From an uncultured Verrucomicrobiota bacterium (lineage in GTDB: Bacteria; Verrucomicrobiota; Kiritimatiellia; CAIQIC01; Lenti-01): DNA of 64,000 nt. The DNA lies in NCBI GenBank assembly GCA_937860055.1, contig CALMBO010000014.1, positions 25,132-89,131 of the forward strand, read 5' to 3'. This document shows positions 6,834 to 23,888 of the stretch, piece by piece. The position numbers and the translations under genes are program-made. The notes under the pieces are model-generated. The model was not told the DNA's origin and ran no database searches. It saw only the letters and a program-made list of their open reading frames with translations. Numbering within the stretch: the stretch's first letter is position 1; each line of letters opens with the position of its first letter.

Positions 6834-6950
6834 AAATAGAAAGGCCTCCCGCGCAAGAGAGGCCTGAATAGCAGAAACCAACCGGGAAACCGCCTTCGTA
6901 TAACTATTTCATCGTCAGAACATGGTTTCCCTTCTTCCCGGGGAAACAAA

Positions 6951-8684
6951 ATGGAACAAATATCAACCGACTACTCTGCCAAACTAAACGCGGACGCAAA
7001 TATGCTGAAGGAGTTCTTCAGCATGCTCTTTGACCCCGATGAATCCGTATTGATCGTCCCGGGGCTGAATACAGAGAGATTCAAGGCTCTCTGTGCAAAT
7101 CTCGAAGGCTGGCCAAAGGAGATTGGGGGAAGGGAAACCACCTACTTCAGCAAGAAACTAGGCCGCATCCAACCTCGCCGTTATCTCAATCCATTTTCCC
7201 GTTCCCCGACCTCCGCCTCGACCCGGAACCTCGTAGCCCTCCACGAAATAAACCGGCAGGGATACGACATCTATTTCGCCATCAATCCTATGTCCTGCCG
7301 CCGCAGATGTCAGAAGACGGTCACAATGGCGAAACACGTTCTAGTTGAATCGGACACCAGCGATATCGACGCCCAACTTCGCTTTCTGAAGGAATACGAA
7401 GCCAACATCATCTCGGCCGTCCAGTCCGGTGGCAAGTCCATCCACTGCCTTGTTCGCATAGAGCCTTCACGATTGCATCCAGGGGCTGTCGGATGGAGGG
7501 AGGCCTATAGACTTCCCAAAGGCGAGACCAAGGCTCCGTGGGCCGAATACAGGCAAATTGGGGACTACTGGATTGCTGAGGCTCATAAACATGGAATGGA
7601 AATCGACACCGCGGCGGCCCATGACCACTCAAGGGTATCGAGGGTTCCGGGGTTCCTGCATGGCAAAACAGGCCGGAGGGCTGAAGTTGTCAAAATGAAC
7701 CCTATGGCCTCCTGGGACTGGAGGGGATCTGTGAAATCTTCGATGCTTGTGAGGTCGTCGATATTGTCGATATCACCGAATCAAGATGATGATGATTCAT
7801 TTTCAATATTAAATCCGAAAACCGAGTCTTTTTGTGAACTATTGGGGACTTTTGGGGACTTGAAGGAGACTAGGGAGAATAGAGACCCCGCCACGACTAA
7901 TGTTGTGCGCATAATCGGCCCGTATAGCCAGTGCCAACATCATGGAACTAGTTTTCTGGATGTATTGGACGACTTCGGGCGCCTGCGAGAGAGCGGGCTG
8001 CCCGGCCGACATACAAGGCGAAGTATGCATCGAACGCTCTTCGAGGCGGCAAGGGTCTATCGGTGGTCGATTCTTCAGATGGCCAGAGAATGGAGGCGAA
8101 TAATCAAAAGAAATCCGAAAGCAACCGTTGAGTCCGTTAAAAGCGCGGGGAGAGACATGTTGCGGGCGTGGAAAGCAACAGATGGAGTTGGGATCTACCT
8201 GCCCGATGTGACCAAATTGCCAGATCTTGACGATGCTAAGCGGGCGGTGTTGCAGACCCGGCTGGTCGGAATGGGCTGCAATGAGCCAAGGAAAGCCGCC
8301 AGAATCATCGAGCGGGTCATCCTGCCTCTTATCAAGAGCCTGCCGCGCCAATGTCGACAGGGGACTGTAGGCATCAAATCCAGAGCGCTTCGAGAGGCCG
8401 CTCATATATGGGGCCATTCGAGGGATTACAGGCACTTGTGGGAATGGATGCAGAAGGTCGGAATTGTCACCTGCATGAACAGCGATTACGTGCCGGAGAG
8501 TAGAACCCGGCAGTATGGCGTTAACATTCTTCTGGTCATATGGCTCTGCGGCTTCCGCACGGAGGAACTGGTCTGGAACACGGTAGCCAGTAACATATGG
8601 CCAGAACTTGCCCGCATGCGCGTGATCAACGATGGTGCGGTGGACTTTGGGGCTACAGAGTCTGAATTGCATTCAACCGGTTAG
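6951..8684 (+). CDS. primase-polymerase (archaeo-eukaryotic primase superfamily, RepB'-like/PrimPol-like) with C-terminal extension; no helicase motifs
   Basis: N-terminal AEP motifs are present: YDIYFAINP, the acidic motif HVLVESDTSD, and SGGKSIHCLV (sGxG.H). There is no Walker A motif anywhere in the 577 aa. Confidence 0.65.
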   Translation: MEQISTDYSAKLNADANMLKEFFSMLFDPDESVLIVPGLNTERFKALCANLEGWPKEIGGRETTYFSKKLGRIQPRRYLNPFSRSPTSASTRNLVALHEINRQGYDIYFAINPMSCRRRCQKTVTMAKHVLVESDTSDIDAQLRFLKEYEANIISAVQSGGKSIHCLVRIEPSRLHPGAVGWREAYRLPKGETKAPWAEYRQIGDYWIAEAHKHGMEIDTAAAHDHSRVSRVPGFLHGKTGRRAEVVKMNPMASWDWRGSVKSSMLVRSSILSISPNQDDDDSFSILNPKTESFCELLGTFGDLKETRENRDPATTNVVRIIGPYSQCQHHGTSFLDVLDDFGRLRESGLPGRHTRRSMHRTLFEAARVYRWSILQMAREWRRIIKRNPKATVESVKSAGRDMLRAWKATDGVGIYLPDVTKLPDLDDAKRAVLQTRLVGMGCNEPRKAARIIERVILPLIKSLPRQCRQGTVGIKSRALREAAHIWGHSRDYRHLWEWMQKVGIVTCMNSDYVPESRTRQYGVNILLVIWLCGFRTEELVWNTVASNIWPELARMRVINDGAVDFGATESELHSTG

Positions 8685-8900
8685 GGAATCGCTTGATTTT
8701 TGTCCAAGTCCGCGCGCGAGTGGCAAGTTGATTGGGCAGGTGGGGGCGTCAGGGCGGAATGGCCTGAAGAGCGCGTCATGGGGCTTCGTGAGGCTGAAGG
8801 CTGTCAGATCCTAAACGCCCAGCCTTCTCCTGGCACCGAGAAACAGAACCTTCCAGATGTCTGGAAAGTTCGCCACAATGTCGGCATATTGTGGGATTAC

Positions 8901-9950
8901 CTATTCGAACTCGATCGAGTAGACATTCCCTTGCTTGATGGTGAAGAAGCCTTCCCTGCAAGACTTATTACGGGGTTTTCCTCGTTGTGCGGAAGCGATG
9001 ACCGCAAGGTCGAATCCGGCTTGAGCCTCAGTTTTGCTCGCGAAAATGCGATACATACTAAGAAGGGCTTGTTTGTGGATTCCGAGACGTTCCGAGGCGA
9101 TGATGTCCACCAATAAGCCGTAGCCAGACCCTGGGCGGAAGGGATTCTTTGGGTGACGGAGCAGGTTAGCCACAGGAGTTCCCTTGTATGAGCTTTCGGT
9201 GGGATTGCTTTTGGCTGGGATATTCTCGGCAACCGGCTTGGCCTTCTTGGCGGGAGCCATTCTCGCAGGCTTGGCGGGCGGGACCTTTTCCAAGTATTCC
9301 TGCACTGACGCTTTTATAGCGAACGATGCATTTGGATCAAAGATATCCCATCCGCATGCCGGAGGATGTCCATGTTTCTTCCAGTATTCCATGACGGAAA
9401 TCGGAATTTCGGTGGCAAGTCGATAATAGACATCCTTGCCGATGGCCATTTTCTCGACCACCGACCGCCAATTGTTGTCGGGATGCAAGGGGTTGGCCAC
9501 CACGCCAAAGGCCAGATAGAACATTGTAACATCTATTGTGCCGTTGGCACCCATAAGTGTCAGTTTATCAGATGTAAGATGACCATTATTAAGCAGTTCC
9601 CAAGTTCTGGCCGCCTCGGAATTTGGATGATCTAGGAAAGGGTTATTGGTGGCGAGGGGATGCGTTCCAGACTGTTTGGCTTTCACCGGAACTCTGGCTT
9701 TTTGTTTGTGCATATGTACAATCTCGAATGCACTCAATCCAATGTCAATCCTGAACGGAGCCCGCCTGTGATTTCTAAAACAAAACCTTCCCGTCATGAT
9801 TTGATGATAAGGGTGTATGCTGACATTCTTCGGGGCATCCACTATCGCCATGAGTTCGCCAGAAGGGATCCCGTCGTTAGAAATAAATGCGAGGGCATCA
9901 TTGACGCTCTGGGTTCTAATCATGAGTCCTTCTCGGCATTCGAGGCCCAA
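8901..9950 (-). CDS. hypothetical protein (up to 349 aa; true start may be an internal Met near 9797-9851)
   Basis: Long ORF with a Lys/Pro-rich central linker (KAKPV..PAKS). It overlaps plus-strand ORFs at both ends, so the strand assignment is uncertain. Confidence 0.4.
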   Translation of the reverse strand: MGLECREGLMIRTQSVNDALAFISNDGIPSGELMAIVDAPKNVSIHPYHQIMTGRFCFRNHRRAPFRIDIGLSAFEIVHMHKQKARVPVKAKQSGTHPLATNNPFLDHPNSEAARTWELLNNGHLTSDKLTLMGANGTIDVTMFYLAFGVVANPLHPDNNWRSVVEKMAIGKDVYYRLATEIPISVMEYWKKHGHPPACGWDIFDPNASFAIKASVQEYLEKVPPAKPARMAPAKKAKPVAENIPAKSNPTESSYKGTPVANLLRHPKNPFRPGSGYGLLVDIIASERLGIHKQALLSMYRIFASKTEAQAGFDLAVIASAQRGKPRNKSCREGFFTIKQGNVYSIEFE

Positions 9951-10670
9951 GACGGAAGCCTGTTGGTAGATATTCTGGCCAAGGCCTATCGAAAGGCCAA
10001 GAAGAATACGGACGGATCAAATATCCAAAAAGATCTCTCCGCATTTTTTATATCCTATGGAATATTGCCCATTGCACCATTGGGAAGGCCATTCTTAGGC
10101 GAGAACATTAGATTGAATCGGAAAACTGGAATACCGAGTCATAATTATGGAGAAAGCGACCATATTTGGCTGAAAATAGTTTGGAACAAGCTGTTGGCAT
10201 TTGAGATATTTGCTATGGCGGAATTCTCATTGCCTCATCCGATAATGATGCCGGTCCTGCCGCTATCATTGCCAACGACTAAAACAGGCAATAATGATCT
10301 TCGAGAGAATGTCGAGGTAACGCCAACCTCATTGCCTGTGTACATCAACATCCTACAGTCTCCCGAGGTGTTGGCGAACTACATTACTGCTTTTGCGGAG
10401 CAAGGAAGAGAGTCTCGCCTTTTGCAAATGCCAAAACAAGAGTCGGACTATAGAAGCGTTAAGACCGACGAGAGCAAATACGAGCGGTATCTTGATGCCC
10501 TTGATCTGGATTTGAAGTGCCAAGAAGGAGTACCATACGGCGATAAGTATGAATATTTTCAACGATACAACGACTTCCATAATCCAACTGGCGACGCCAT
10601 CATCACGTTTTACAAGGATTCAAGAAGATGTGCCCGGTTGTACCGTGATAAATACCGGCTAATTGTCTGA
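9660..10670 (+). CDS. hypothetical protein (up to 336 aa; alternative start at 9804)
   Basis: Long ORF co-directional with the plus-strand operon. It overlaps the 5' end of the minus-strand ORF at 8901-9950. No recognised domain. Confidence 0.35.
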   Translation: MRSRLFGFHRNSGFLFVHMYNLECTQSNVNPERSPPVISKTKPSRHDLMIRVYADILRGIHYRHEFARRDPVVRNKCEGIIDALGSNHESFSAFEAQDGSLLVDILAKAYRKAKKNTDGSNIQKDLSAFFISYGILPIAPLGRPFLGENIRLNRKTGIPSHNYGESDHIWLKIVWNKLLAFEIFAMAEFSLPHPIMMPVLPLSLPTTKTGNNDLRENVEVTPTSLPVYINILQSPEVLANYITAFAEQGRESRLLQMPKQESDYRSVKTDESKYERYLDALDLDLKCQEGVPYGDKYEYFQRYNDFHNPTGDAIITFYKDSRRCARLYRDKYRLIV

Positions 10671-10827
10671 TCGCCCGCATTTACTCCTGACTCTTTAAGT
10701 TTCCTGTTTCTCGCCTTGATTGTCCTCTCAGGGTGAAGCCAGACGTGTGCCCAATCTCCCCCTAGTGCCGGTCGCTTATGTAATATAGAGACATTAAATT
10801 AGCCACAGTTAACTAAAGGACTGTGGC

Positions 10828-11613
10828 ATGAAAAAGACATCCAAGACGGCGCCGGCAAAAATGGCCGGCAAGACATCTGAGCCCACCGGGCAGACGGCGA
10901 CCACGAAGCGCGCCCGCCAAGTAAAACCTTCTGGATGTCTGGAAGGTTCAGCCTCAAGCGGTCTGCCGAAGAAGAATGCCGACGACATCATCGCCATGCA
11001 TGGCGAAGAGGCCTACAAGTACTACTTCGACAGCGAGGACGGGAAGTATTCTATCGGAGCGGAAGCTGGCGGGGCTACAAAAGAATTGCGGGGGACCGAC
11101 GCGCGCGTACCCAATGAACTCTATGTCTGTCGGGCTCTCTCCCAGTACCTCCAGAAGAAAGGGATAAGGGATGTCTCGTCCTCGACGATCTATGACTGGA
11201 TGCGTTCCGATGAAACCCGCAAGGCGCTTGGCGGTAAAGGCAAGGCTCCCAAAATCTCTATCAGCTTCTATGTAGCCGTCAGCCGGGATGACATCCCAAT
11301 TGAGAAGCGGCGGGAACATCTCGAATATGCGATTAAACATTCACTGACAGTCGGGGGGCTCAAGGATCGTATCTTTGGGAGAGAGGGGGTAAGTGGGATC
11401 GGCGATGGCGATGCTGCAGGCGAGGGGGCCATATCGGACATCGCAACAGCCGAGCGGATTATCAGCGAATCCCGGTCGTTATTGTTGGGCCATTATGAAG
11501 AGTTTCGCTCAATCGATCCCGCGCAGAACAGTAGTTCCATCGCTCTGCTGGAAAACCTAGCAATCTATATCTGGCAACTGCGGGACGATATTGCCAACGG
11601 CGGACCTAAGTAG
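10828..11613 (+). CDS. hypothetical protein (261 aa)
   Basis: ORF preceded by an inverted repeat that embeds the RBS. No recognised domain. Confidence 0.55.
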   Translation: MKKTSKTAPAKMAGKTSEPTGQTATTKRARQVKPSGCLEGSASSGLPKKNADDIIAMHGEEAYKYYFDSEDGKYSIGAEAGGATKELRGTDARVPNELYVCRALSQYLQKKGIRDVSSSTIYDWMRSDETRKALGGKGKAPKISISFYVAVSRDDIPIEKRREHLEYAIKHSLTVGGLKDRIFGREGVSGIGDGDAAGEGAISDIATAERIISESRSLLLGHYEEFRSIDPAQNSSSIALLENLAIYIWQLRDDIANGGPK

Positions 11614-11624
11614 GGGGATGACGA

Positions 11625-12797
11625 ATGAAATCGCTGAAACACATTCCCGATGTATCGACGAAGAACATGGGCAACAAGGATAAGACCGGCGTCCAAGCCG
11701 ACGGCACCAAGAAATCTCTGCTGAAGGCCATTTCTGAAGCCATCGGCGATTGTCCCGAAGGAGTTATCGACCTGACCGCCGGGAGTCTTGCGGTATCCCT
11801 GCATCTGAATTCCATTTGCGGGAAGCGGGTAATCGCCAACGATTGTCGTAAGGCGTCATATTACACGGGGCTGGCCTTTTTCAACAGCGATGGGGTGGTT
11901 ATCGGGGCCAAAGATATCGAACTGCTCCAACATGGTGGTCTTGTCGCCGGTCCCGTAGTCAAACTGCTCGAGTCAGTCTTGGGCAAAAATAACGCAACGC
12001 AATTTGACCGGATCATCCGCAACCTGGGTTGTCTTGCCGGTGCCGGTGCCGAACAGAAGCGTATCATTGCGATAGCCGGCATCCTCCAGGCTATCTCCGG
12101 AGCCCTCAACGTCTACCATCTTCGGGGGGCCAACAGGGACTGCGGTGCCGCCGGGAACGAACATCTCAGGGATGCCGATCTTATCTCCGAATGGCGGGAA
12201 TGGGTCCTTGTCAAGCATCCGGAGATCGCCAAGGGGATTACCCTCGGTTGCGAAATCTACAACGAAGACGCCGTCTCGCTTATGCAGGATAAGAAGCCTT
12301 CAGCATCCTGCCTATATTTAGATCTTCCATACGGAATAGGAAATTATATTGCCGACCTTAAGGTCTTCGAGGACATCTGCAATCTTTGCGAGGGGAAACG
12401 GCCAGGCGACCCGGTATTCGGGCGCCCCGCTCAACCTAAACATCGGTTCGACAACCGCATCGACTACATTGGCAACCTGACGAAGCTGCTTCTGGGGTCC
12501 GACCATATCCCGCGCTGGGTGATTTCCATTAATACAAGTTCGCCCGTTAAGCCCGAAGAGATTGTCAGGATTGTCCGGTCTTTTGGCAGGAAATGCGAAA
12601 TCCGGCGTTACAAGGTCTCCCTGGCAACCAACCGCAAGAGGGCAACTCCCCTCGAAAATTATGAATGCTTGATCATATGTACGCCAGACGCCGAGCTTGA
12701 AAAACAAATTTCAGGCATTCGCAGTCGTTTCGAATCAATGGCCAGTTCCCGCCGTCTATTGTCTCCGAGTACGGGGAACAAACAGGAGCGCAAATGA
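11625..12797 (+). CDS. N6-adenine DNA methyltransferase, Dam-like (alpha-class) candidate
   Basis: An N-terminal AdoMet-binding-like block (VIDLTAGSLAVSLHLN) resembles Dam FxGxG. A downstream DPPY-type motif reads CLYLDLPYGIG. The motif order (FxGxG then DPPY) fits the D12/Dam class. Confidence 0.55.
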   Translation: MKSLKHIPDVSTKNMGNKDKTGVQADGTKKSLLKAISEAIGDCPEGVIDLTAGSLAVSLHLNSICGKRVIANDCRKASYYTGLAFFNSDGVVIGAKDIELLQHGGLVAGPVVKLLESVLGKNNATQFDRIIRNLGCLAGAGAEQKRIIAIAGILQAISGALNVYHLRGANRDCGAAGNEHLRDADLISEWREWVLVKHPEIAKGITLGCEIYNEDAVSLMQDKKPSASCLYLDLPYGIGNYIADLKVFEDICNLCEGKRPGDPVFGRPAQPKHRFDNRIDYIGNLTKLLLGSDHIPRWVISINTSSPVKPEEIVRIVRSFGRKCEIRRYKVSLATNRKRATPLENYECLIICTPDAELEKQISGIRSRFESMASSRRLLSPSTGNKQERK

Positions 12798-12906
12798 AAG
12801 GGTCGGGTCTGACAATCGATTTTCGCTTTGGCGAGTGTCCAAGAGCGATGGAAAGAAGAAACGCCCAATAGGGCATAGGCCGAATAACCAGAAGGACGAG
12901 GAAGAA

Positions 12907-13218
12907 ATGAAAAAGATACAAGACGGGCTCAAGTACGACACCGAAACGGCGACCCTTGTCGCAGAAGACTGCAACGGGCACGACCGTAGCAATTACAACT
13001 ACTGGACAGAGCAACTCTACCGCACACAGAACGGTCGGTGGTTCGTGTACAAGGCTGGCGGGGCCAACACCCAGTATATGGTCAAACTCTGCGATGGGCG
13101 AGGCTTCGGAGAGTCCATTGAAATCCTCGACGATGAGGCAGTCAAGGAGTGGCTCGAAGAGCACAACAAGGGCGAAGCATACGAGAAGTACTTCGGCAAC
13201 GAAATCAAGAATGCATAA
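12907..13218 (+). CDS. small hypothetical protein (103 aa)
   Basis: A good Shine-Dalgarno sequence (AGGACGAGGAAG) precedes the ATG at 12907. The longer 12697 start lacks an RBS. No motif. Confidence 0.4.
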   Translation: MKKIQDGLKYDTETATLVAEDCNGHDRSNYNYWTEQLYRTQNGRWFVYKAGGANTQYMVKLCDGRGFGESIEILDDEAVKEWLEEHNKGEAYEKYFGNEIKNA

Positions 13219-13281
13219 AGCAATAGGGGATACCTGCAGACAAGACTCCGCAGGGGTCTCCACTAAAACAAAGGCAATGAG

Positions 13282-14109
13282 ATGAAATCACATAATCAGA
13301 TCAAAGAATCGAAAGTACACCCCCGTCCCGCCAGCGGAACTGGCGAATGGGCAGAGGAAAACATCAACATTCAGACCGGCTGCAACCGGGACTGCAAATA
13401 TTGCTATGCCAAATGCATGGCGGTTCGGTTCCGCCGCGCGACACCAGAATCGTGGCCCGACCAGGTTGTTGATGAGGCCAAGGTAAAAAAGCATTACGGT
13501 AAGTCGAAAGGCCGGGTTATGTTTCCCTCGACCCACGACATCAGCCCCGAAAACATCCAAGACTGTCTGCAGGTCATGGATTGTTTGCTGAAGGCCGGTA
13601 ACGACATCCTCGTTGTCAGCAAGCCCGAACTAGCCTGCATCAAGAGCATCTGCGCCAGATTCATAAACAATAAGCGACAGATACTCTTCAGGTTCACCAT
13701 CGGTTCAGCGGACGATGCAATTCTCACAAAATGGGAGCCGAACGCATCCTCATTCGGCGAGAGGCTAAAATGTCTCAAGCACGCTTACGCATTAGGCTAC
13801 GGTACTTCAGTCTCCTGCGAACCGATGCTGGATGCCCAGGTTGGCAAAGTCATCAAAGCCGTATCGCCATTCGTCACCGACTCGATCTGGTTGGGTCGGA
13901 TCAATCGGCTCCGCCAGACAATCGCGATCAATTGTCCTGGCGACGAAAGCATCAAAGCGCTGGCGAACCAATTACTGGCAGAGCAGACCGACGACTGGAT
14001 TCTGGCTCTGTATAATAACTTCAAGAACAACCCAATTATTCGATTCAAGGACTCCATCAAGAAAGTGGTGGGTCTTATAAGGCCGACAATAAAAGGGTTG
14101 GACATATGA
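13282..14109 (+). CDS. radical SAM protein, SplB/COG1533-like (DNA repair photolyase-type)
   Basis: CxxxCxxC motif embedded as GCNRDCKYCYAKC, matching the GC...C.YCYA pattern of COG1533. Size is about 275 aa. Stop overlaps the next start. Confidence 0.6.
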   Translation: MKSHNQIKESKVHPRPASGTGEWAEENINIQTGCNRDCKYCYAKCMAVRFRRATPESWPDQVVDEAKVKKHYGKSKGRVMFPSTHDISPENIQDCLQVMDCLLKAGNDILVVSKPELACIKSICARFINNKRQILFRFTIGSADDAILTKWEPNASSFGERLKCLKHAYALGYGTSVSCEPMLDAQVGKVIKAVSPFVTDSIWLGRINRLRQTIAINCPGDESIKALANQLLAEQTDDWILALYNNFKNNPIIRFKDSIKKVVGLIRPTIKGLDI

Positions 14110-14957
14110 ATACTATGGACGGGAGAGATTCCCGGCAGGAGACAAGAAGCAAAACCTCTGACAACTCAGGGGATGACCAAAAGACAGAAAGAGAAGCCAT
14201 GAAAAAGAAAAATGCGAAAAAGATGAATAACTCAATGAACATCAAGAAACAGGAGGATGGTATGGGCAAGCAAGATGCGAATGGTGAACGCTTGGGTGAT
14301 TGGTTGAAGCGGGAAGAAGAATGTAAGCAGGCGTGGTATGCATTCATTGCAACCCACGAAATACCCGATGAAATTCCGACAAGACCAGACATGGTTTACG
14401 CCAACGAAGGATGGAAAGGCTGGCAAGATTGGCTGGTGTCGCCTGATTCGAAAGGAAATATGGCCAGAACGGTCAAGGAACCTAATCTGCCAACTCCCGA
14501 CGAGTGCTTCATCTCCGTAGTATTCGACGAATGGCTGAAGGACAGCCATTGCCTGGACTCCATGGAGGTGTGGGATGCCGACCCGAAAAGGCCGTTCCGT
14601 TTCAATGCAATCATAGAATTCACCACCCATCAGGGGCTTTCAAATGGCAGTGACCTTGGCTTTCTGATGGTTCAAGAGGCAATGAGTCGCATTATGGAAA
14701 TTGGCCATTCTGCCGGACTCTGTACCTGCTGCGTGGTTCAAGCGGTCGGACAGGTCAGTCTGAAGAAAAGCGACGGGAATGCCTTTGCGAAGGAACGCCT
14801 GGTTGACAACGGGATGGACGAGAAAGATGCCGAGGTGTTTCTCCGCAGCGTCTCGTTGTATCTCAATGTCATTAGCGACGAATGGCCGTTTAAGTATGTC
14901 GGCCCGAGCGAGACATCTGATGACAAGGCAATGGATTCTGATGGAGGCCATCCATGA
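14106..14957 (+). CDS. hypothetical protein, paralogue A of an unrecognised family (basic disordered N-terminus)
   Basis: Shares the blocks EWLKDSHCLD..WDADPKRPF.FN and EWPF.YVGPS..DD.A with the ORF at 15417-16127. Confidence 0.6.
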   Translation: MNTMDGRDSRQETRSKTSDNSGDDQKTEREAMKKKNAKKMNNSMNIKKQEDGMGKQDANGERLGDWLKREEECKQAWYAFIATHEIPDEIPTRPDMVYANEGWKGWQDWLVSPDSKGNMARTVKEPNLPTPDECFISVVFDEWLKDSHCLDSMEVWDADPKRPFRFNAIIEFTTHQGLSNGSDLGFLMVQEAMSRIMEIGHSAGLCTCCVVQAVGQVSLKKSDGNAFAKERLVDNGMDEKDAEVFLRSVSLYLNVISDEWPFKYVGPSETSDDKAMDSDGGHP

Positions 14958-15175
14958 GCGATAAGAAACTGATCTACAGGGCAACAAAGGCTTACTACCA
15001 GCATTGCCTCCGCAATGGACAAATATTCAGCCAGCCCGACAAGGGGCTCTCGGAGGTGGATGGCGACTATGTTGTTCTTCGCAACTGCGATGGAGTGCTG
15101 GCGTTGTATTGGATTACGGACAATGGACTTCATTTTGTCGAACACTCGGATTCGGAGGCTAAGGAATATGTTTGA
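14954..15175 (+). CDS. small hypothetical protein (73 aa)
   Basis: ATGA start/stop overlap with the upstream gene. Confidence 0.4.
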   Translation: MSDKKLIYRATKAYYQHCLRNGQIFSQPDKGLSEVDGDYVVLRNCDGVLALYWITDNGLHFVEHSDSEAKEYV

Positions 15176-15416
15176 GAAGGCAAGCAAGGTCTCCGAGGCC
15201 TTAAGCACCTCCAGCTCCCCATTGGGTCGTTGGCTCTGCAAAGATCTCGACTCAATGGGACCCCTAGGCCAACTGGCCTCTCCGCTGTTCAAGGCCGGCG
15301 CCTCTTCGCTGCCTATGCAAAGGACTTAGAAATCTATTAAGGCAGGAAAGCCAGCGAAAAGCCCAACAGCTCGCCCTCGGCACTCTGCATCGGTCTGCCA
15401 ATAGGTCAGAAAGAAA

Positions 15417-16127
15417 ATGAGGAGAAAAATGAAAAACAAAAAGAGCGCCAACATGGACTCGGGTGCAAAGACCGACATCAAAGCGATAAGAAAACCTAAA
15501 GACATTCATGCTGGAGTAGGAGAACTGGAAGAAAGACTTGAGCGTCTTCTTGGCTTGTTCCGGAATGTTCCAACGACATCTATTGGTTGCGGCGAAGAAA
15601 GCGCATTTCAAGCCGTCCAGAATGTGATTGATAGTCTAAAATATGCGCTTTCAACCTGTGAGGTTGTTGCAAATCAATGCTTCGTATCTGAGTTAATCAA
15701 CGAATGGCTGAAGGATAGCCATTGCCTCGATAACCAGGATGCGTGGGACGCTGATCCGAAAAGACCATTCCCATTCAATGAGGTTATGGCCTTCATTGAC
15801 AAACATGGGCCATTCGATAGCAAGGATCTCAGAACCTGGATGACCGGAGTGGCGCTCAGGCGCATGGTCGTCATTGGGCGCTCGGTGGATATCAGTAGAG
15901 CCCTTGGGCTGATTCGGGTGGTCGGACAAGTTAGTCATGGGAAAAGCCGGGAGATCTCCAAGGCGATGGATTATCTTGGCGAAGCTGGACTATGTGCCAG
16001 TGAGGCAGATGAGTACCTGCGTTGCGTTTCATTGTACCTCAAAGTCTGCCGTGGCGAGTGGCCGTTTGACTATGTCGGCCCGAGCCAGTCGGCAGACGAC
16101 GAGGCCAACTCAAGGTCTTCCCCATGA
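15417..16127 (+). CDS. hypothetical protein, paralogue B of the same unrecognised family
   Basis: Carries the same conserved blocks as 14106-14957 (EWLKDSHCLDNQDAWDADPKRPFPFN ... EWPFDYVGPSQSADDEA). It has a basic N-terminus. Confidence 0.6.
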   Translation: MRRKMKNKKSANMDSGAKTDIKAIRKPKDIHAGVGELEERLERLLGLFRNVPTTSIGCGEESAFQAVQNVIDSLKYALSTCEVVANQCFVSELINEWLKDSHCLDNQDAWDADPKRPFPFNEVMAFIDKHGPFDSKDLRTWMTGVALRRMVVIGRSVDISRALGLIRVVGQVSHGKSREISKAMDYLGEAGLCASEADEYLRCVSLYLKVCRGEWPFDYVGPSQSADDEANSRSSP

Positions 16128-16223
16128 ACCAACCCCTCCAGCCCAGCATTTCCCAGGCCATGTGCCGAGATATACAAAAATCTGTCGCTGTATAATGAGT
16201 CATCATCAAAAGGAGTAATTAAT

Positions 16224-16757
16224 ATGTCGAATGTATGTAGAAATCAAATACTAGTCGTAGGTCCTACCCCGGGCCTCGCCCGGTTCAAGCGGGAAGCCTG
16301 TAACTTCAAGTCCTACGACGATCCGCACGTCGATCTGCGCATGGACAAACTTATTCCACTGTCAGTCCTCTCAGCCAGAGAGCGCGAATGTTTTGGTTGC
16401 TACGGAGATGTCGGTGGTACCCGACTCAGGTTTAGAGATTCAAAGTCCGGCTTTGGCTGTCTGGACTTTAAATTCGACTCTTCGGATTGGGCACCAATTG
16501 AGTTCCTACAGAAGACATCTGAACTTTATCCAGATCTGGAATTTCATCTCATTCATACTGTAGGAGATTCTTGCCGTGCAGGAAAAGTCACATATTTGGC
16601 CGGGAAGCCAATAAATGAAGTCCGGGTGGCGTACATCGATCCCGATGACTGTCTCGATGAATACCTAGATCGACCCGGCCTGGTCCCATGGATGGAAGGC
16701 CTGTTCAAAAATCCAGATTCTCCTATGCCGAATCACAATGAGGGCGACCCTGAATGA
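16224..16757 (+). CDS. hypothetical protein, member 1 of a second paralogue pair
   Basis: Strong RBS (AAAGGAG). An upstream TGTATAAT extended -10 lies at 16189-16196. The N-terminal N.C.N.L.V.G block and the C-terminal YP.L.F.LI...G block are shared with 16920-17441. Confidence 0.55.
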   Translation: MSNVCRNQILVVGPTPGLARFKREACNFKSYDDPHVDLRMDKLIPLSVLSARERECFGCYGDVGGTRLRFRDSKSGFGCLDFKFDSSDWAPIEFLQKTSELYPDLEFHLIHTVGDSCRAGKVTYLAGKPINEVRVAYIDPDDCLDEYLDRPGLVPWMEGLFKNPDSPMPNHNEGDPE

Positions 16758-16816
16758 CCGTCCGCCTCCAGCATGATATGGCCATTGGGTTCGCCACCAG
16801 AAAGGCGTCCGCCTCG

Positions 16817-16850
16817 CGGCCACCTGACCCATACCCCCGCACCCTCCAGC
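16817..16850. repeat. about 33-bp intergenic motif GGCCACCTGACCCAT..CCGCACCCTCCAGCC (copy 1)
   Basis: Near-identical copy at 17448-17480. A shorter CCCCTCCAGCCC version occurs at about 16134-16145. Each copy lies just 3' of a cargo gene. Confidence 0.6.
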
Positions 16851-16919
16851 CAATCGGCCTCCAGAAGGCCCGAACCTATACGCGGTATAATCGAATAAGA
16901 AAACAAAAGGAGAAATATT

Positions 16920-17441
16920 ATGCCTAACTACTGCGAAAACCACTTAACCATCACAGGCCTTCGCAAGGACCTTGAAGTCTTTCGCGACAGCGCTGCTTTA
17001 CTAGAAGCGTCTTCCGAGGGTGATGAGGCTTCCCCCTTTTGCTTCAGCAAACTAGTGCCGGTCCCGGAACCCCTATTCGATATCAAGGATTATGAATACG
17101 ATTGGAAGGAGGAGCATTGGGGATGCCATCGGTCTGCAGAAGACGTCGATTGTTTCCTGTTCTGCGACGAAAATGGAAGAGGGCAGCTTGTCTATGAGTT
17201 CCTTACTCCCCGGTCGTGTCCTGTTAAGTTCATCGAGGGGATTTCGGCTAGATATCCGAACCTGACATTCTCCTTGATTGCCTTTATAGGGGAAGTCCAG
17301 TCTGCCGCGCTATATATCGCCCGTCGCGGCATCATATTTACCGAAATTGTGGGACATTACGAAGCGTCTCTGATGGATGATGCCTTTCAGGAAGGGCCGT
17401 ACACCTCATGGCGATTTATTCCGCCCCAGGAAGGCATCTAG
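16920..17441 (+). CDS. hypothetical protein, member 2 of the second paralogue pair
   Basis: RBS AAAGGAGAAA. An upstream GGTATAAT -10 lies at 16884-16891. Sequence blocks are shared with 16224-16757. Confidence 0.55.
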   Translation: MPNYCENHLTITGLRKDLEVFRDSAALLEASSEGDEASPFCFSKLVPVPEPLFDIKDYEYDWKEEHWGCHRSAEDVDCFLFCDENGRGQLVYEFLTPRSCPVKFIEGISARYPNLTFSLIAFIGEVQSAALYIARRGIIFTEIVGHYEASLMDDAFQEGPYTSWRFIPPQEGI

Positions 17442-17447
17442 CTGAAG

Positions 17448-17480
17448 GCCACCTGACCCATGCTCCGCACCCTCCAGCCC
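17448..17480. repeat. about 33-bp intergenic motif (copy 2)
   Basis: Matches 16817-16850 with a few mismatches and one indel. It starts 7 nt after the stop of the upstream gene. Confidence 0.6.
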
Positions 17481-17551
17481 CAAGCCCCCAGACGGACCTT
17501 TTCGAAAATCCACAACAGCGTTTAGGTGGTTCCGGAGGCTGAAAAAGGCCG

Positions 17552-19225
17552 TTGGCGACGGCTGCAGAAATGGACATGAAGAAAGGCAAAAAGAAGCGAG
17601 GCATTTGGCAGGACTTCCGCCCCTGTGACCCTGAGGGGAAGGCGTCGGCCGTCTACATTCGCATCTCCCGCGACGACGCCGGGGCGAAGAATCCCAAGGA
17701 GGCCAAGGAGTCCGCCCGGGTCCAGCAGTCGAAGTGCGAGGCCTACGCCAAGGAAAGGGGCTGGGCCGTCCGGCTCTATCAGGACATCAACCTTTCGGGC
17801 TTCGACGACGAGGGGCGTCCCGATTTCCAGCGGTTGCTTGCCGACATAAACGCAGGCCTCATCCACTCGGTCATCGTACTTGAGCCCAAGCGTCTAGCCC
17901 GCGACAACTCGATCATGGACGCGGTCGTCAAGGAATACCTCTATCCGAACGGGATCAAGCTCCATGGAGTAATGAGCCCGATCGACATCACGAACGATGA
18001 CGGGCTCTTCATGCTCGGCATCGAAATGGCCTTTTCCCGTAAGGCGATTTCGGAGCAGCGCAAGAAGTCCATGGCCTCCATCGACAGCCAACTGAAAGAA
18101 CACACCTTCATCCCCAGGCCATGCTACGGCTACCGGCGAGACGAGAAGGGGCGGATCCATGTGGTGGAGTCCGAAAAAGCGGTGATCCTGGAGATGTACC
18201 GGATGTGTCTCAAGGGCGACTCGATGAACGAGATCAGCGAATATTTCAACCGAGCCGGCGTCCCGGGCAAGCGGGGGGCTAGGTGGTGGACCCACCGGCA
18301 GATCAAGATCGTCCTGACCAACCCGGCCTACGTGGGCAAGATCCGCTACCGGGGCGTGCATGAGACCCGGTTGATCCCCAAGATGGTGACCAAGGAGACG
18401 CAGGACTCGGCGGCGGAGATGCTGGCCATCAGGTCCCACAAGCGGGCGCCATCCAAGCGGCACCTCTTGAGCGGGCTGGTGACCTGTTCATATTGCGCTG
18501 AAAAGGCGAGCAGGGGCGAACGGGCCTATCCGGCGATGGTCCTGAACATCCAGACGCAGGGCCCCAAGGGAGAGAAGAAGAAGTACGCCTATTTTTTCTG
18601 CCAGTCCCAGAACCGGGGTGTGTTCCATTGCGAGTCGCCCAGGGTTCCGGAAGCCGCCTTGGACGCCATTGTCGAAGGCACCATCGTCCCTTATGTCCTG
18701 GACAGGTATTCGAGGCAGATCGGCGCCGACTCGCACCAGGAGACCCTCAAGAGGCTGGAGGCGGCGAGGGGGCGGGTCCGTCTCGTCGAGTCACGCAACA
18801 AGGAGATCGAGGATTCGTTCGCCTCCGGGGAGATGGGGAAACTGGAATACCTTCGTCTGAGGGACAAGAACCAGGCGAAGTCGTCGGTTGCGAGAGAGGA
18901 GATATCCGTTTTGCTCCAGATGGCCGAGTCGGAAGACCCGAACAAGGTTCAAGAGGTCGTGGATGTCTTGCAAAGATGGCAGGAGATGCCCATGGAGAAA
19001 CGGCGGGACGCCATCCGCACCTTCATCGAGTCAATCGAGGTTTCCGCCGAGTGGGTGACCTTCCATATCAGGCCCGTCGGGGGCGACAAGTGGTCGTTCA
19101 ATGTCCGACTGGAAACCGTGCGGAGATACCAGGAGAAGCCCATAGGGGATCTGAAGAATCATATGGAATGGACGCTGGGGCAGGCGGGGTATGCTAACCA
19201 GGAACCTTGTCCCAATGTCGGTTGA
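17552..19225 (+). CDS. large serine recombinase (integrase)
   Basis: N-terminal resolvase-type catalytic region with the serine motif AVYIRISRDD, followed by a long recombinase domain and a C-terminal Cys-rich zinc ribbon (CSYCAEK...FFCQSQNRGVFHCESP). Length is 557 aa. It lies at the junction with host DNA. Alternative start at 17573. Confidence 0.85.
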   Translation: MATAAEMDMKKGKKKRGIWQDFRPCDPEGKASAVYIRISRDDAGAKNPKEAKESARVQQSKCEAYAKERGWAVRLYQDINLSGFDDEGRPDFQRLLADINAGLIHSVIVLEPKRLARDNSIMDAVVKEYLYPNGIKLHGVMSPIDITNDDGLFMLGIEMAFSRKAISEQRKKSMASIDSQLKEHTFIPRPCYGYRRDEKGRIHVVESEKAVILEMYRMCLKGDSMNEISEYFNRAGVPGKRGARWWTHRQIKIVLTNPAYVGKIRYRGVHETRLIPKMVTKETQDSAAEMLAIRSHKRAPSKRHLLSGLVTCSYCAEKASRGERAYPAMVLNIQTQGPKGEKKKYAYFFCQSQNRGVFHCESPRVPEAALDAIVEGTIVPYVLDRYSRQIGADSHQETLKRLEAARGRVRLVESRNKEIEDSFASGEMGKLEYLRLRDKNQAKSSVAREEISVLLQMAESEDPNKVQEVVDVLQRWQEMPMEKRRDAIRTFIESIEVSAEWVTFHIRPVGGDKWSFNVRLETVRRYQEKPIGDLKNHMEWTLGQAGYANQEPCPNVG

Positions 19226-19317
19226 CAGACCCCCTTCTGGGGCTTAATCTGCAATCACTCTATATAAGGTATAGACCACTCTAACCCCAATATGGCATCT
19301 AACACATAGAATTACCA

Positions 19318-20313
19318 ATGGGTTACAGTTTACACCACAGGGGATATTATTCCGACGTGAAGGGGCAGGAGTTCGCGCGTCGCGCGATCGAAGTGGCGGT
19401 GGCCGGTGGCCACAATATCCTCCTGGTGGGGCCGCCGGGCACGGGGAAATCCATGCTGGCCAAGCGGGTGCCGACGATCCTGCCGCCGCTGGGGCTGGAA
19501 GAGGCGCTGGAGACGACGAAGATCCACAGCATCGCGGGGGTGCTGCCGGCGCACCAGGCGGTGGTGGGGGGTCGGCCGTTCCGGTCGCCGCACCACACGA
19601 TTTCCGATGCGGGGCTGCTGGGCGGCGGCACGCATCCGCTGCCCGGCGAAGTCAGCCTGGCGCACAACGGGGTGCTGTTCCTTGACGAGCTGCCGGAGTT
19701 CCACCGCAACGTGCTGGAGGTGATGCGCCAGCCGCTGGAGGATGGCGTGGTGTCCATTGCGCGCGCGGCGGCTTCGGTGACGTTTCCGTGCCGGTTCATG
19801 CTGGTGGCGGCGATGAATCCGTGTCCGTGCGGGCATTTCGGGGATGCGAAGCGGGAATGCCGGTGCACGCCGGTCCAGATGCAGCGCTACCGAAACCGGA
19901 TTTCGGGGCCGCTGCTGGACCGCATCGACATCCACGTCGAGGTGCCGGCGATGGAATACCAGCAGCTGGCGTCGCTGGAGAAGGGGGAGTCCTCTTCGCA
20001 GATCCGGGAGCGGGTGGTGGCGTCGCGGGCGGTTCAGCGGGAGCGGTTCGCCAAGGGCCGGGGGGCGCATGCGATCCACTGCAACGCGGGGATGCGGGCC
20101 AAGGACGTGCACAAGCACTGCATGCTGGACGATGCGGCGCAAAGCCTGCTCAAGGCCGCGATGGCCGACCTGCACCTGAGCGCCCGCGCCTATGACCGGA
20201 TTTTGAAGGTAGCCCGGACGATCGCGGACCTGGCGGGGGAGGGCGACATTGCCGCCGACCATGTCGCCGAGGCCATCCAGTACCGCTCCCTGGACCGGCA
20301 ATACTGGACCTGA
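19318..20313 (+). pseudogene. comM: comM (Mg-chelatase-like AAA+ competence ATPase), 3' fragment; 5' part displaced by element insertion
   Basis: The 331-aa ORF aligns to the ComM/YifB C-terminal two-thirds only, beginning at [29 protein letters not shown] (Walker A). The N-terminal domain of about 170-190 aa is absent. The first codons are AT-rich junction DNA, and the GC switch occurs at about 19350. Confidence 0.75.
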
Positions 20314-20399
20314 GGCCGCACAGGCCGACAATCCTTGACAACAAGGGCCGCATTCGCTCCAATTCCGCGTTGGATATCCGATTACACAAGGAGGCCCCA

Positions 20400-21803
20400 A
20401 TGGCATTCAAGGTCAACATCGTCGGCATCGTGGCATGGGTTTTGGTGGTGGTTCTGGCCATCGCGGCGGGAGTGCTGGGATTTCTGGGCCAGCAACAGGC
20501 GGGCAAGGCGGCGGGATTGCGCGATGCGCTGGTGCAGGTGGCTGCGACGGCGGGGGTTCAGGAGTTGAAGCCGGCGGAAGCGGCGCCCGAAGCCGCTCCG
20601 GCGGAAGGAGAGGCGGCCGCCGCCCCGGCGGCGGCGCAGCCGCTGACGGCGGATGCGCTGAAGGACACGGCGGTGCTGGCAACCGCCGTGCAGCAATTGC
20701 AGACGGCCATCCAGGTGACGCAGCAGGAACTGGCGACCACGAAGGATTCCCTGACGGCTTCGCAGATGGAAGCTTCCAACGCCAAGACCGAATCGGCGGC
20801 CTTGTCCCAGAAAGTACAGAAACAGACGGCGGCGGCGGAGGCGGCAACCAAGGACCTGGCGGCGAAGGGCGAAGAAGTCGCGGCCGCCAAGGCGGCGGCG
20901 GAGAAGGCGGGCCAGGAATTGCAGGAAGCCAAGCAGTCCGCCGAAAAGCAGAAGGCTGAGATGGAAGCTTCCCTCGAGGACTTGAAGGCGCAGATGGCGG
21001 AGGAGACCGCCCGCCTCCAGGCGGAGCTGGAAGCGGCCCGGCAGGAGGCGCAAGCCACCACGGAACAGGCGGCGGCACCCGAAGCCGTCGAAGCCGCGGG
21101 AGAGGAAGGGGATGCCGTGGCCATGGAAGACGTGGTCATGGAAGAGGCCGTTGCCGCAGAGCCGGAGATGGCTGCCGAAGAGCCGGTGGCGGAGCCGGAA
21201 GCGGTAGAGGAAGAGAAGCCGGGCCGGGTGATCGGCCAGTCGCAGATGTTTTCGCTCATCCGTTATTCGGAGGAGGACCAGGGCTTGTTCCTCCGCTTGC
21301 TGGACGGGCAGACGTTGACCTATCGGGAGGTTCCTCGGGATGTCTATGACCAGCTGGTCGGCGCGGAGGACAAGCTGGACATGATCTACCGCTTCAAGAT
21401 CCAGGGCGCATTCAAGAGCCTGCCTCCGGACAGCACGGTGGTGCGCAAGTATTGGAAGGGACAGCGCTACAAGCCGGCGAAGAGCGATGTGCGCGTGATC
21501 GAGCCGGAGGCCCCGCTGGTCATCGTGGACGAGCAGCCTGCCGCCGAAGAGGCCGCTCCCGCCGAAGCCGTCGTGGCCGAGGCTCCCGCGGCGGAAGAAG
21601 CGGCTCCTGCCGCAGAGGCGGCCCCCGCAGAAGCTCCTGCCGAGACCCAGGCCCCCGTTGCGGAAGAGGCTGCTGCACCTGCTGCAGAGGAGGCTCCGGC
21701 GGCCGAGGCTCCTGTCGCAGAGGAGATCCCCGCCGAGACGTCTGCGCCGGAGGGGGAAGCCGCCCCGGCCCCTGCGGAGGAGGCGGTTCCGGCTTCGAAC
21801 TGA
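20400..21803 (+). CDS. membrane-anchored Ala/Glu-rich coiled-coil protein with KTSC-like domain
   Basis: AAGGAGG RBS before the ATG at 20400. N-terminal TM helix (IVGIVAWVLVVVLAIAAGVLGFL). Long A/E/K/Q-rich coiled-coil and PAEA repeats. A KTSC-like block reads FSLIRYSEEDQGLFLRLLDGQTLTYREVPRDVYDQL. Confidence 0.7.
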   Translation: MAFKVNIVGIVAWVLVVVLAIAAGVLGFLGQQQAGKAAGLRDALVQVAATAGVQELKPAEAAPEAAPAEGEAAAAPAAAQPLTADALKDTAVLATAVQQLQTAIQVTQQELATTKDSLTASQMEASNAKTESAALSQKVQKQTAAAEAATKDLAAKGEEVAAAKAAAEKAGQELQEAKQSAEKQKAEMEASLEDLKAQMAEETARLQAELEAARQEAQATTEQAAAPEAVEAAGEEGDAVAMEDVVMEEAVAAEPEMAAEEPVAEPEAVEEEKPGRVIGQSQMFSLIRYSEEDQGLFLRLLDGQTLTYREVPRDVYDQLVGAEDKLDMIYRFKIQGAFKSLPPDSTVVRKYWKGQRYKPAKSDVRVIEPEAPLVIVDEQPAAEEAAPAEAVVAEAPAAEEAAPAAEAAPAEAPAETQAPVAEEAAAPAAEEAPAAEAPVAEEIPAETSAPEGEAAPAPAEEAVPASN

Positions 21804-21928
21804 GAAGTCCTTGTTCCAGGACGCGGAAGGGCCGGGCATCGCCCGGCCCTTTTGGTTGGAGGTGGAAACGGATTGAACGGGGGAGCGGCTTCGGGTAAGA
21901 AAAGGGGGCTTTGCAAAGGAGTTGGGCG

Positions 21929-22237
21929 ATGAGCGACGAAAAACAGAATGGCGAGATGTTCCAGGGGCTTGTGATTTCGCTGGCCGCCGCCGTGATGCAG
22001 CATCTGGGCAAGACGCTGAATCCCGTCACGCACAAGATCGAGAAGAACCTGCCGGCGGCGCAGTCCGCGATCGACATGCTGGACATGCTGGAAGCCAAGA
22101 CGAAAGGCAACCTGAGCGATCCGGAGGCGAAGCTGCTCCGGGGAGTGCTGGCGGAGCTGAAACTGAACTATGTCGAGACGATGAACGAGAAGCCCTCCGA
22201 GCCTGCGCCCGAAAAGAAGCCGGAACAGGCCGGTTGA
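21929..22237 (+). CDS. DUF1844 family protein
   Basis: Pattern MSDE..FQGLVISLAAAVMQHLGKTLNPVT..IEKNLPAAQSAIDMLDMLEAKTKGNL is characteristic of DUF1844. Start taken at an internal Met. Confidence 0.6.
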   Translation: MSDEKQNGEMFQGLVISLAAAVMQHLGKTLNPVTHKIEKNLPAAQSAIDMLDMLEAKTKGNLSDPEAKLLRGVLAELKLNYVETMNEKPSEPAPEKKPEQAG

Positions 22238-22241
22238 GTCC

Positions 22242-23888
22242 ATGGGAGCGCGCTATCTCCGTCCCAAGCGGTTGCTGACGCTGGCCTTGCTGGCGGTTTC
22301 GGTGGCCGTGGCCATCTGGTGGGTGGGCTACATTCCGTACGATCCGCTGGCGATCTACCGGCCCATTCCGGCCTCGGCCACGCTGGTGGGGAGGCATCTG
22401 CAGCTGCCGGCGCGCTGGGGCGACCTGCTGGCGAATCCGCTGGCGCAGGCCCTGATGCGAACGGCTGGGATCGAGCCCGGGGATGCGGCGGAGCTGGCGA
22501 CGGACGCGGAATCGAGGAAATGGTTTGAGAAGCTGGCGGGCCGCGAGGGCACGCTGGCCTATCTTCCGGGGCGCATGGGGGGGCTGCCGGCTTGGATGGC
22601 GGTGAGCCATCTGGGCGGCGAAAGCCAGAAGCTGCGCTGGCAGCTCACGCTGTTCCGCGTGCCGGGATTCGAGCGGATGAAGGAATTCCCGGGCCGTTCG
22701 GTATGGCGAGTGGAATCCAGGGATCTGGAGCCCGGCCAGGTCCTGGCCATCGCCTTTGGAGAAGGCGTCATCATGGCCTGCCTGTCGGAGGATCCCCTGG
22801 CCATCGCGGAAGCCTTGGCCGCCTATGATGGCCGGGGCCGGCGCCTGCTGGAAGCGGAAGCATCGTTCGCCGAGATGGTTTCGGGCGACGACCGGAGCCT
22901 GCCGGACCGGCTGTGGATCCGCGACGAGAGCGCCTGGACGGTGACCGATTCGCCGGGAATCGTCGTGGATGTGCCGGTGCTTCGCGGCGACGCCATTTCG
23001 CTGTCGGCGACGAGCGAGGGGGTGCCGATGGTGCCGGCGGACCGTGCGGCGGCGTCGGACATCGGTCCGTTGGCGCGGTTGCTGGGAGATGCGCCGTGCG
23101 CGGCGGCGGCGGTGAAACGCGAGGCGCTGCTGCAGGTGCTCGTGCAGCCGGGCCTGCAGCGGGATGTCCGGCATGCGCTCCGGATGGCATTGGATGTGGC
23201 GACGTCCGACCGCGTGGTGGTGGCGGCCATGGACGGCGACCTGGGCGGGCGGCTGGCATGGGGCGCGATGGGATCCCTGGGATTGTCGGGGCTCCGGGTG
23301 CCGACACTGCTGGCGGCAGCGCCGGTAAAGGACGAGGCGGATGCCCGGGCGGCCATCCAGCGGGTGATGGATGCGAGCAATTCGCGCTACAAGGCGGCCT
23401 TCATCCTCCAACCGGTTTCCATGCCGCCTGCGACGATCTATGTGCTGGAAAGCGCCGGAGGCGACGAATGGGTGGATTCCCTGTCGGAATCCGACCGGCC
23501 GGCCTATGCGGTCCTGAACGGCTGGCTGCTGGCGTCGAGCAATCTCGACGCGCTGAAGAAGCTGGCGCAAAAGGCGGCTTCCGGAGAGGGGGCGGGGGGA
23601 ATGCCGGTCTGGGCGGCGCAGGTGGAGGGGTCGTCCGCCTTGTCGATCTGGCTGGATCTGGCGCGGAGCGGCAAGGTGGCGAAGGACGCCATCGCCACCT
23701 GGTCCATGGCGCAGATGTTCCTGAATGGCGGCAATTCCCAGGCCATTCGCGGACGGCTGAACGAGGCCAAGGCCTGGATCGACGCCCTGGCCCCGCTGGG
23801 GATGGCGCGGGCGCAGCTGGGGCGCCGGGGGGAGAAGACGACGGTGTCGGTGGATTTGGGGTTGTCCGGGGCTGTGCGGCCGGAGTAG
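22242..23888 (+). CDS. hypothetical membrane-anchored protein (548 aa)
   Basis: N-terminal TM segment (LLTLALLAVSVAVAIWWVGYI). Long ORF co-directional with its neighbours. The antisense 924-aa ORF is rejected as a GC artefact. Confidence 0.6.
   Translation: MGARYLRPKRLLTLALLAVSVAVAIWWVGYIPYDPLAIYRPIPASATLVGRHLQLPARWGDLLANPLAQALMRTAGIEPGDAAELATDAESRKWFEKLAGREGTLAYLPGRMGGLPAWMAVSHLGGESQKLRWQLTLFRVPGFERMKEFPGRSVWRVESRDLEPGQVLAIAFGEGVIMACLSEDPLAIAEALAAYDGRGRRLLEAEASFAEMVSGDDRSLPDRLWIRDESAWTVTDSPGIVVDVPVLRGDAISLSATSEGVPMVPADRAAASDIGPLARLLGDAPCAAAAVKREALLQVLVQPGLQRDVRHALRMALDVATSDRVVVAAMDGDLGGRLAWGAMGSLGLSGLRVPTLLAAAPVKDEADARAAIQRVMDASNSRYKAAFILQPVSMPPATIYVLESAGGDEWVDSLSESDRPAYAVLNGWLLASSNLDALKKLAQKAASGEGAGGMPVWAAQVEGSSALSIWLDLARSGKVAKDAIATWSMAQMFLNGGNSQAIRGRLNEAKAWIDALAPLGMARAQLGRRGEKTTVSVDLGLSGAVRPE

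Follow-up and report, generated by a model that had tools for sequence, protein, structure and literature searches.

The 64,000-nucleotide stretch of DNA analysed here (the window hereafter; positions 25,132 to 89,131 of contig CALMBO010000014.1, from an uncultured Verrucomicrobiota bacterium of the Kiritimatiellia) holds the right end of an integrated element that directly abuts a 5'-truncated comM gene. We consider it very likely that this mobile element, which carries its own large serine recombinase (LSR), inserted into comM by site-specific recombination. The argument is built on the following features, listed with their strand where they have one; GC stands for the fraction of guanine plus cytosine and aa for amino acids:

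1-19351 (no strand): right-hand part of the integrated element, a low-GC block that runs on past the window's left edge
17552-19225 (+): LSR (integrase) gene, 557 aa when read from a TTG; translation probably starts at the ATG at 17570, which gives 551 aa
19226-19351 (+): P arm of attR, element-derived, with no match to intact comM and a GC of 0.38-0.47
19348-20313 (+): comM 3' fragment, codons 194-514, with the AAA+ and C-terminal domains and no frameshift
19352-19355 (+): crossover interval CCGA, the sole bases common to the attB, attR and attL types
20370-23888 (+): host flank, made up of genes for a KTSC-domain protein (20370-21803), a DUF1844 protein (21911-22237) and a 548-aa protein (22242-23888)

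The original prediction had described an open reading frame (ORF) that aligns only to the C-terminal part of ComM/YifB, and this was borne out. The ORF, listed at 19318-20313 (+) and 331 aa long, matches Mg_chelatase (PF01078, 8.4e-97) and Mg_chelatase_C (PF13335, 4.6e-33) in Pfam and has no ChlI/Lon-like N-domain (PF13541), the third part of the ComM/YifB architecture; it represents only part of a family member. By tblastn, window positions 19348-20307 align without gaps, and with 94% identity, to residues 194-513 of a relative that is full-length. Homology begins at Y-S-DVKGQ, the initial 10 residues of the ORF show no relation to ComM, and its start, the ATG at 19318, is encoded by the element. 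The closest ComM homologues (93-94% identity), annotated at source as YifB/Mg-chelatase-like ATPases of Kiritimatiellia and Verrucomicrobiota metagenome-assembled genomes, are 514 aa long and contain all three domains, PF13541 included; the possibility raised in the original prediction, that close relatives have a ComM naturally starting at the junction, turned out not to be the case. One of the full-length relatives matches the solved ComM structure 8rxd from end to end (E 2.9e-126). No other ComM-like sequence, 5' fragment included, was found by tblastn across the window, and no tRNA gene was found in it. Base composition changes at the same place: in 1-kb steps, GC is 0.47-0.60 over positions 1-19000 versus 0.60-0.71 over 20001-64000, and in adjacent 100-bp steps it passes from 0.38 (19250-19349) to 0.69 (19350-19449), a step that coincides with the junction and with the jump predicted within about 19300-19360. 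As to expression of the truncated ORF, a consensus scan for an outward promoter returned a single weak site, which shuffled sequence yields just as well and which we treat as chance, and no ribosome-binding site is evident ahead of the in-frame ATG at 19318.

On the other side of the junction, the gene that stops at 19225 had been read as a serine recombinase with a catalytic motif and a Cys-rich zinc ribbon, and its product indeed contains all three domains of an LSR: Resolvase (PF00239, 2.6e-18, residues 33-175), Recombinase (PF07508, 4.6e-14, residues 207-291) and Zn_ribbon_recom (PF13408, 5e-07, residues 305-376). Public gene calls also place its start at the ATG at 17570 (551 aa). The translation itself shows the catalytic motif YIRISRDD at residues 35-42, and S39, the nucleophilic serine of the resolvase-type catalytic domain, is invariant together with R37 in an alignment with five relatives, as are C312, C315 and C350 of the zinc ribbon. 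The protein matches phrog_95 (integrase, 3.6e-77) among the PHROGs, and the closest solved structures are the SPbeta integrase YokA/SprA (the best PDB match), TnpX and the TP901-1 integrase. It is nonetheless divergent: its best matches among deposited phage integrases reach only ~25% identity, only 30 clusters fall below 1e-30 among 1.84 billion representative proteins, and the nearest clusters outside its own are 30-36% identical. The LSR is the final gene of the element, its stop codon lying 126 bp from the crossover and 92 bp from the start of the ORF that contains the comM fragment.

The original prediction had also suggested a search for an uninterrupted comM in related genomes. Such a gene is present in L010, L011 and L015, between rmlA-rmlC and genes for a KTSC protein, a DUF1844 protein and a ~545-aa protein; this is the empty site, and the three genes of the host flank in the window have the order that they have 3' of intact comM in these relatives. 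The window and L010 are ~82% identical at the nucleotide level on both sides of the variable repeat region of the KTSC gene (blastn). Because relatives at 94% identity are 514 aa long in a matching gene order, the comM gene of the window is truncated and not naturally short. A scan of genome contigs with the ComM N-terminus recovered intact relatives at 99%, 94% and 83% identity, the window's own genome not being among them. The junction itself is reproducible: it is 100% identical in L001 (an ENA assembly) and in L002, L003 and L004 (three Logan assemblies from different runs). The KTSC-domain gene (20370-21803, +), which adjoins comM on the downstream side, encodes an Ala/Glu/Pro-rich protein of highly variable length (in the window 477 aa as listed, or 467 aa according to public calls, against 408 aa in L010 and 343 aa in L013), and the blastn alignment of the window to its relatives is interrupted within this gene.

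The mirror image of the window junction exists in other genomes. A search with the N-terminal 194 residues of ComM returned short proteins that end in ..DDDYA and then run into unrelated tails (EVNSRQMCKASS.., EVYDSQMCKVAS, EVYSHKMCKVAS and EVYDHKMRKVIA). In four related genomes, the comM 5' fragment stops at the same codon (..DDDYA/EV.., where the slash marks the break) and at the same nucleotide as the junction in the window. On these attL-type contigs, rmlC lies directly upstream of the comM 5' fragment (rmlA-rmlC in L095), and the DNA beyond the fragment has a GC below that of the host flank (45-55% in L095) and carries cargo that is entirely different from one genome to the next: a histidine kinase and a response regulator in L095, a UvrD-like helicase region in L096 and a KAP NTPase-QatB-TatD (Qat-like) cluster in L097. 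None of the attL-proximal cargo of these three contigs has a protein-level match to the window element, and the left end of comM-inserted elements behaves as a variable cargo bay. The claim that an insertion has split comM is thus upheld by the intact relatives, by the 5' fragments broken at the same codon and by the reproducible junction. One further split gene was set aside: in L102 (1270-1290), comM appears as two overlapping ORFs owing to nine consecutive G residues, which lie ~35 nt upstream of the att core, and P0091, from this contig, was rejected as a second attR: it is a poly-G frameshift with no inserted DNA, probably an assembly or sequencing error. As this case illustrates, ORF length by itself is weak evidence of insertion.

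Comparison of the three junction types locates the crossover. The attB sequence is GAT TAC GCC GA/C GTG AAG GG, the window junction reads ..ATATTATT CCGA C GTGAAGGG and the attL sequences read GA(T/C)TA(C/T)G CCGA G GTGTAC... CCGA alone is common to the three, and strand exchange is therefore placed there. The original prediction had proposed that an alignment of both junctions would reveal a short crossover core; the core was found, the attL side being supplied by other genomes only. Further out, the motif TTTACAC at 19329-19335 forms a perfect 7-bp inverted motif with GTGTAAA, which is located in the relatives' attL arms. Putative attP sites, with P' arms taken from other genomes, were constructed by joining the arm of the window element to each relative's element arm (chimeric, n = 4), and 4/4 of them have their best dyad centre between the G and the A of CCGA. 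The central dinucleotide is thus probably GA at 19354-19355 and, as far as borrowed P' arms can tell, the layout is what one would expect where a serine integrase acts. CCGA occurs once per junction type, so that there is no target-site duplication, and a 4-bp overlap between attP and attB fits a serine recombinase; a shared core of 4 bp falls short of the overlap that tyrosine integrases typically have. Exact-pattern scans of IMG/VR and JGI for the P arm and for the P' arm were empty, and no native attP was found.

We propose that the LSR joined the attP of the element to an attB inside comM, at codons 195-196 (GCC GAC). These codons lie in the conserved motif D-[F/Y]-x-[D/E]-V-K-G-Q, at the boundary between the N-terminal Lon/ChlI-like domain and the AAA+ motor, and strand exchange would occur inside CCGA (19352-19355), probably at the GA dinucleotide. 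The window would then show the right junction, attR, with the LSR, the 3' two-thirds of comM and normal host genes in this order, and the 5' third of comM would be expected next to rmlA-rmlC at the left junction. As long as the element is resident, no full-length ComM would be made from the interrupted locus, and the loss of residues 1-193 suggests that ComM function is lost, although a second copy may exist in the genome. The insertion may well be reversible: excision by the LSR and a directionality factor would regenerate GAT TAC GCC GAC GTG and, because the exchange would be conservative, restore an intact comM (Ala-Asp).

The relatives of the LSR bear on its choice of target. The representative of its cluster, P0272 (79% identity; L104-L108, e.g. 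L104:10001-11930), likewise closes a syntenic element as its last gene, L104 sharing the order methyltransferase, radical SAM, LSR with the window. A GC step lies ~70 bp past its stop codon, and the flank consists not of comM but of two giant genes (1729 aa and 1499 aa), Exo_endo_phos/BACON-like. A 72%-identity LSR (L103), the only match of an LSR-alignment scan in metagenome contigs (the LSR alone as query against IMG/VR and JGI gave none), is not beside comM either; low-GC DNA that contains a DUF4917/SIR2-like gene comes after it, and neither an att site nor an attP could be recognised in L103. Since its closest relatives are not beside comM, the target choice of the LSR is not transferable by homology. 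Specificity of the LSR clade as a whole for comM was rejected, as the P0272 element ends beside Exo_endo_phos/BACON-like genes; comM specificity is a property of a narrow LSR sub-lineage.

A second site in comM is used by an unrelated enzyme. In the sister genomes L013/L014 (7872-10070), a second LSR of 702 aa, 21% identical to that of the window, abuts a comM fragment that starts at the Walker A motif (..NLV/PPGTGKS), 28 codons downstream of the window site, the LSR gene being divergent from the comM fragment. P0122, a comM 5' fragment ending ..LLVGPP/QLPENKYC, matches this Walker A site, and P0083 is a comM fragment with another element-derived leader at the same motif, which suggests a third junction type there. 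Both sites fall in motifs that are near-invariant in 79 genomes from many phyla (D193-[F/Y]-x-[D/E]-V-K-G-Q200 and G221-P-P-G-x-G-K227).

The extent and content of the element were followed on overlapping contigs. The low-GC block is 100% identical to L005 and L001 where they overlap; L005 covers the first 11,846 bases of the window (100% identity) and adds 9,192 bp leftward at 0.49-0.64 GC. The element therefore measures at least 28.5 kb and, as had been predicted, reaches past the left edge of the window. The following genes in the window's part of it could be assigned, many of the remaining ones having no assigned family:

1-364 (+): 3' end of a capP-like M78 peptidase gene (L005:11483-12265, i.e. 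window -418 to 364; PADLOC capP, 2.9e-52)
2380-2919 (-): RNase H gene (Pfam RNase_H, 1.6e-39; phrog_531, 7.3e-51), with a cargo or replication function
5495-6400 (-): GP88-family gene (Pfam PF17338, 9.5e-23; phrog_1392)
6951-8684 (+): gene for a 577-aa protein with a short primase-like stretch (phrog_2597 'DNA primase', 2.1e-14, residues 107-172 only)
11625-12797 (+): DNA methyltransferase gene (Pfam MethyltransfD12, 5.2e-05; phrog_27806; PADLOC MTase_II)
13282-14109 (+): radical SAM protein gene (Pfam Radical_SAM, 6.6e-09)

A complete CBASS (cyclic oligonucleotide-based anti-phage signalling system) operon lies directly left of the window (L005:11483-16053), where PADLOC identifies a NucC effector (3.9e-87), a CD-NTase cyclase (1.2e-83), an E2 protein (1.4e-40) and capP. 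The capP-like gene is a regulator of this operon, and a CapH regulator is probably also present; a 148-aa gene and a sigma-70-region-2-like 233-aa gene lie between capP and the CBASS operon. The other genes on the L005 extension encode a Ymh-family protein, a tyrosine recombinase, a RuvB-like ATPase and a ClpX-like AAA protein. A mosaic relative, L100, reached via P0264 (a 94%-identity relative of an element protein), keeps this AAA-RuvB-like-tyrosine recombinase-Ymh backbone and has a DUF6119 gene in place of CBASS. In its far-left part, L100 also contains a MotA/ExbB-like gene (1927-2826) with a weak ZorA match (E 3.4e-4) and PrsW-protease and TM2-domain genes as neighbours, a region that may be another defence module. 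Just 5' of the LSR in the window are two distantly paralogous genes (16224-16757 and 16920-17441, both +; 23% identity, E 2e-08). Both products begin M-x-N-x-C-x-N, and one has a sub-threshold Api92-like/DUF1281 ferredoxin-like match (E 0.073); from their position beside the integrase, they are candidates worth testing as directionality factors or anti-restriction proteins.

Capsid, portal, terminase and tail genes were found neither in the element part of the window (Pfam and PHROGs) nor on L005 (Pfam) or in the left part of L100. Relaxase and type IV secretion genes were not seen among the element genes covered, and the genes seen contain no transposase domains and no TnsABC/TniABC-type set, target-site duplications being absent as well. 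No relative was found in IMG/VR, with either the LSR or the LSR alignment as query. Prophage status was rejected for want of structural genes, the far-left part of the element lying outside the covered sequence. We call the element an integrative element with defence cargo and not a prophage, a designation that its left part could alter; the term integrative element, used in the original prediction, suits the gene content.

Several facts weigh against the insertion of this element into comM by its own LSR. The left junction of the element with a comM 5' fragment is not reached within 9.2 kb leftward on L005, and L100 continues at ~50% GC ~10 kb further left with no host DNA reached. The attL sites used in the core analysis were taken from other genomes, whose left-end cargo is unrelated to the window element and whose recombinases were not seen. 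Among the proteins fetched (cluster representatives and some members), there was no full-length ComM above 94.4% identity that would mark a same-species empty site, and neither an excised circle nor a same-species empty-site allele nor a directionality factor was found. Finally, the closest LSR relatives (79%, L104-L108; 72%, L103) lie away from comM, adjoining other host sequences, and the element contains a tyrosine recombinase gene (L005:18234-18893, ~6.4-7 kb left of the window). The last two points would be expected if another enzyme, this tyrosine recombinase or a transposase encoded further left, had inserted the element, the LSR being a passenger or serving resolution, inversion or a cargo module; the Phage_integrase-family gene beside the RuvB-like ATPase is also conserved in L100. 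We nevertheless judge this very improbable because: (i), the LSR is terminal and lies right at the junction, as serine integrases typically do, (ii), the shared core is only 4 bp long and the dyad axis is centred on it, (iii), there is no transposon-style target-site duplication and, (iv), in the 79% relative the LSR is terminal again, exactly at the GC step, which argues that the LSR lineage defines the ends of these elements.

It is also unlikely, if less so, that the low-GC block is a tandem or nested array of elements at a comM hotspot, the LSR unit being only its right-most member. The block does contain two recombinase genes of different families, cargo is mosaic among relatives (CBASS here, DUF6119 in L100), and composite islands are known to build up at comM hotspots (AbaR; PMC11441513). 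However, L100 has the AAA-RuvB-like-tyrosine recombinase-Ymh module at the corresponding position, so that the module looks like a backbone and not like a separate insertion, and no internal att-like repeat was found. An assembly chimera, or a short ComM ORF that is natural or frameshifted without any insertion, is the least credible explanation and an extremely improbable one. The apparently split comM of P0091 (L102), due to a frameshift in a nine-G run without inserted DNA, shows that a truncated ORF is no proof of insertion. In the window, however, the sequence 5' of the junction is unrelated to comM and is not frameshifted comM, all close ComM relatives have 514 aa, and the junction is not a chimera because four contigs, each assembled independently and from different samples, share it unchanged. 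We thus retain site-specific insertion by the element's own LSR as the best explanation.

Insertion of this kind has precedents. In Wolbachia, the LSR of the phage WO sr1WO prophages integrates into a magnesium chelatase gene (PMC9203015). There as here, an LSR element splits a gene of the Mg-chelatase/YifB-ComM family, gene fragments flank it and attB is read from an uninterrupted relative (PMC9203015). The host here is a member of the Planctomycetes-Verrucomicrobia-Chlamydiae (PVC) group, a Kiritimatiellia bacterium, instead of an alphaproteobacterium, and, unlike phage WO, a complete phage with structural modules, the window element shows no such modules. Insertions into comM have been described in Aggregatibacter, Acinetobacter, Mannheimia, Francisella, Pseudomonas and Vibrio and were interpreted as elements sabotaging transformation-mediated curing (PMC4774983, PMC12378983, PMC11441513). 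As with the AbaR/Tn6022-type islands of A. baumannii and the islands of Aggregatibacter, Mannheimia, Francisella, P. syringae and V. cholerae, comM is hit recurrently and at orthologous positions, and the expected effect is the same, natural transformation being deprived of its branch-migration helicase (PMC4774983, PMC12378983, PMC11441513). The known hosts of comM islands differ from the present one, an uncultured PVC bacterium from an anaerobic digester or wastewater with no known competence. AbaR islands move as Tn7-like transposons and leave target-site duplications behind, unlike the conservative LSR recombination with a 4-bp shared core proposed here, and they carry antibiotic resistance, the cargo here being anti-phage defence (CBASS).

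A further likeness is with Listeria A118/phi10403S (comK) and Bacillus SPbeta SprA (spsM), in which an LSR also sits at the end of the element, the insertion is inside a coding sequence and the gene is reconstituted precisely on excision, as would be expected of the window element. Regulated excision, 'active lysogeny' or developmental, has been demonstrated for the Listeria comK and Bacillus spsM systems; for the window element, neither excision nor a directionality factor was seen, and it is not demonstrably a phage. The A118 integrase is described in PMC3556126 as a serine recombinase. The host lineage, the recombinase lineage and the precisely mapped site are new here, and the mechanism is like that of the known cases.

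The finding does not overturn current understanding, as comM is already a textbook hotspot for mobile genetic elements and phage WO is a documented case of an LSR that integrates into a gene of the Mg-chelatase family. It provides a clean, nucleotide-resolved disruption of comM by a mobile element in the PVC superphylum, and a divergent LSR with a reconstructable attB could be useful as an integrase tool. The window LSR and its 79% relative form a natural pair for studying a shift of LSR target specificity and, more generally, two unrelated LSRs on adjacent conserved comM motifs, with near relatives of one of them elsewhere, constitute a small natural data set on the evolution of target choice. 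It is tempting to speculate, though we hold this only tentatively and rather doubt it, that comM is a shared landing pad in this Kiritimatiellia clade, on which unrelated LSRs have converged with swappable anti-phage cargo (CBASS, Qat-like, SIR2-like and DUF6119). If the convergence reflected selection to disable ComM, the element would be shielded from removal by transformation; if it reflected reversible excision, ComM expression would be conditional. Were the landing-pad reading true, the intragenomic-conflict model of competence would be extended to a phylum without studied transformation.

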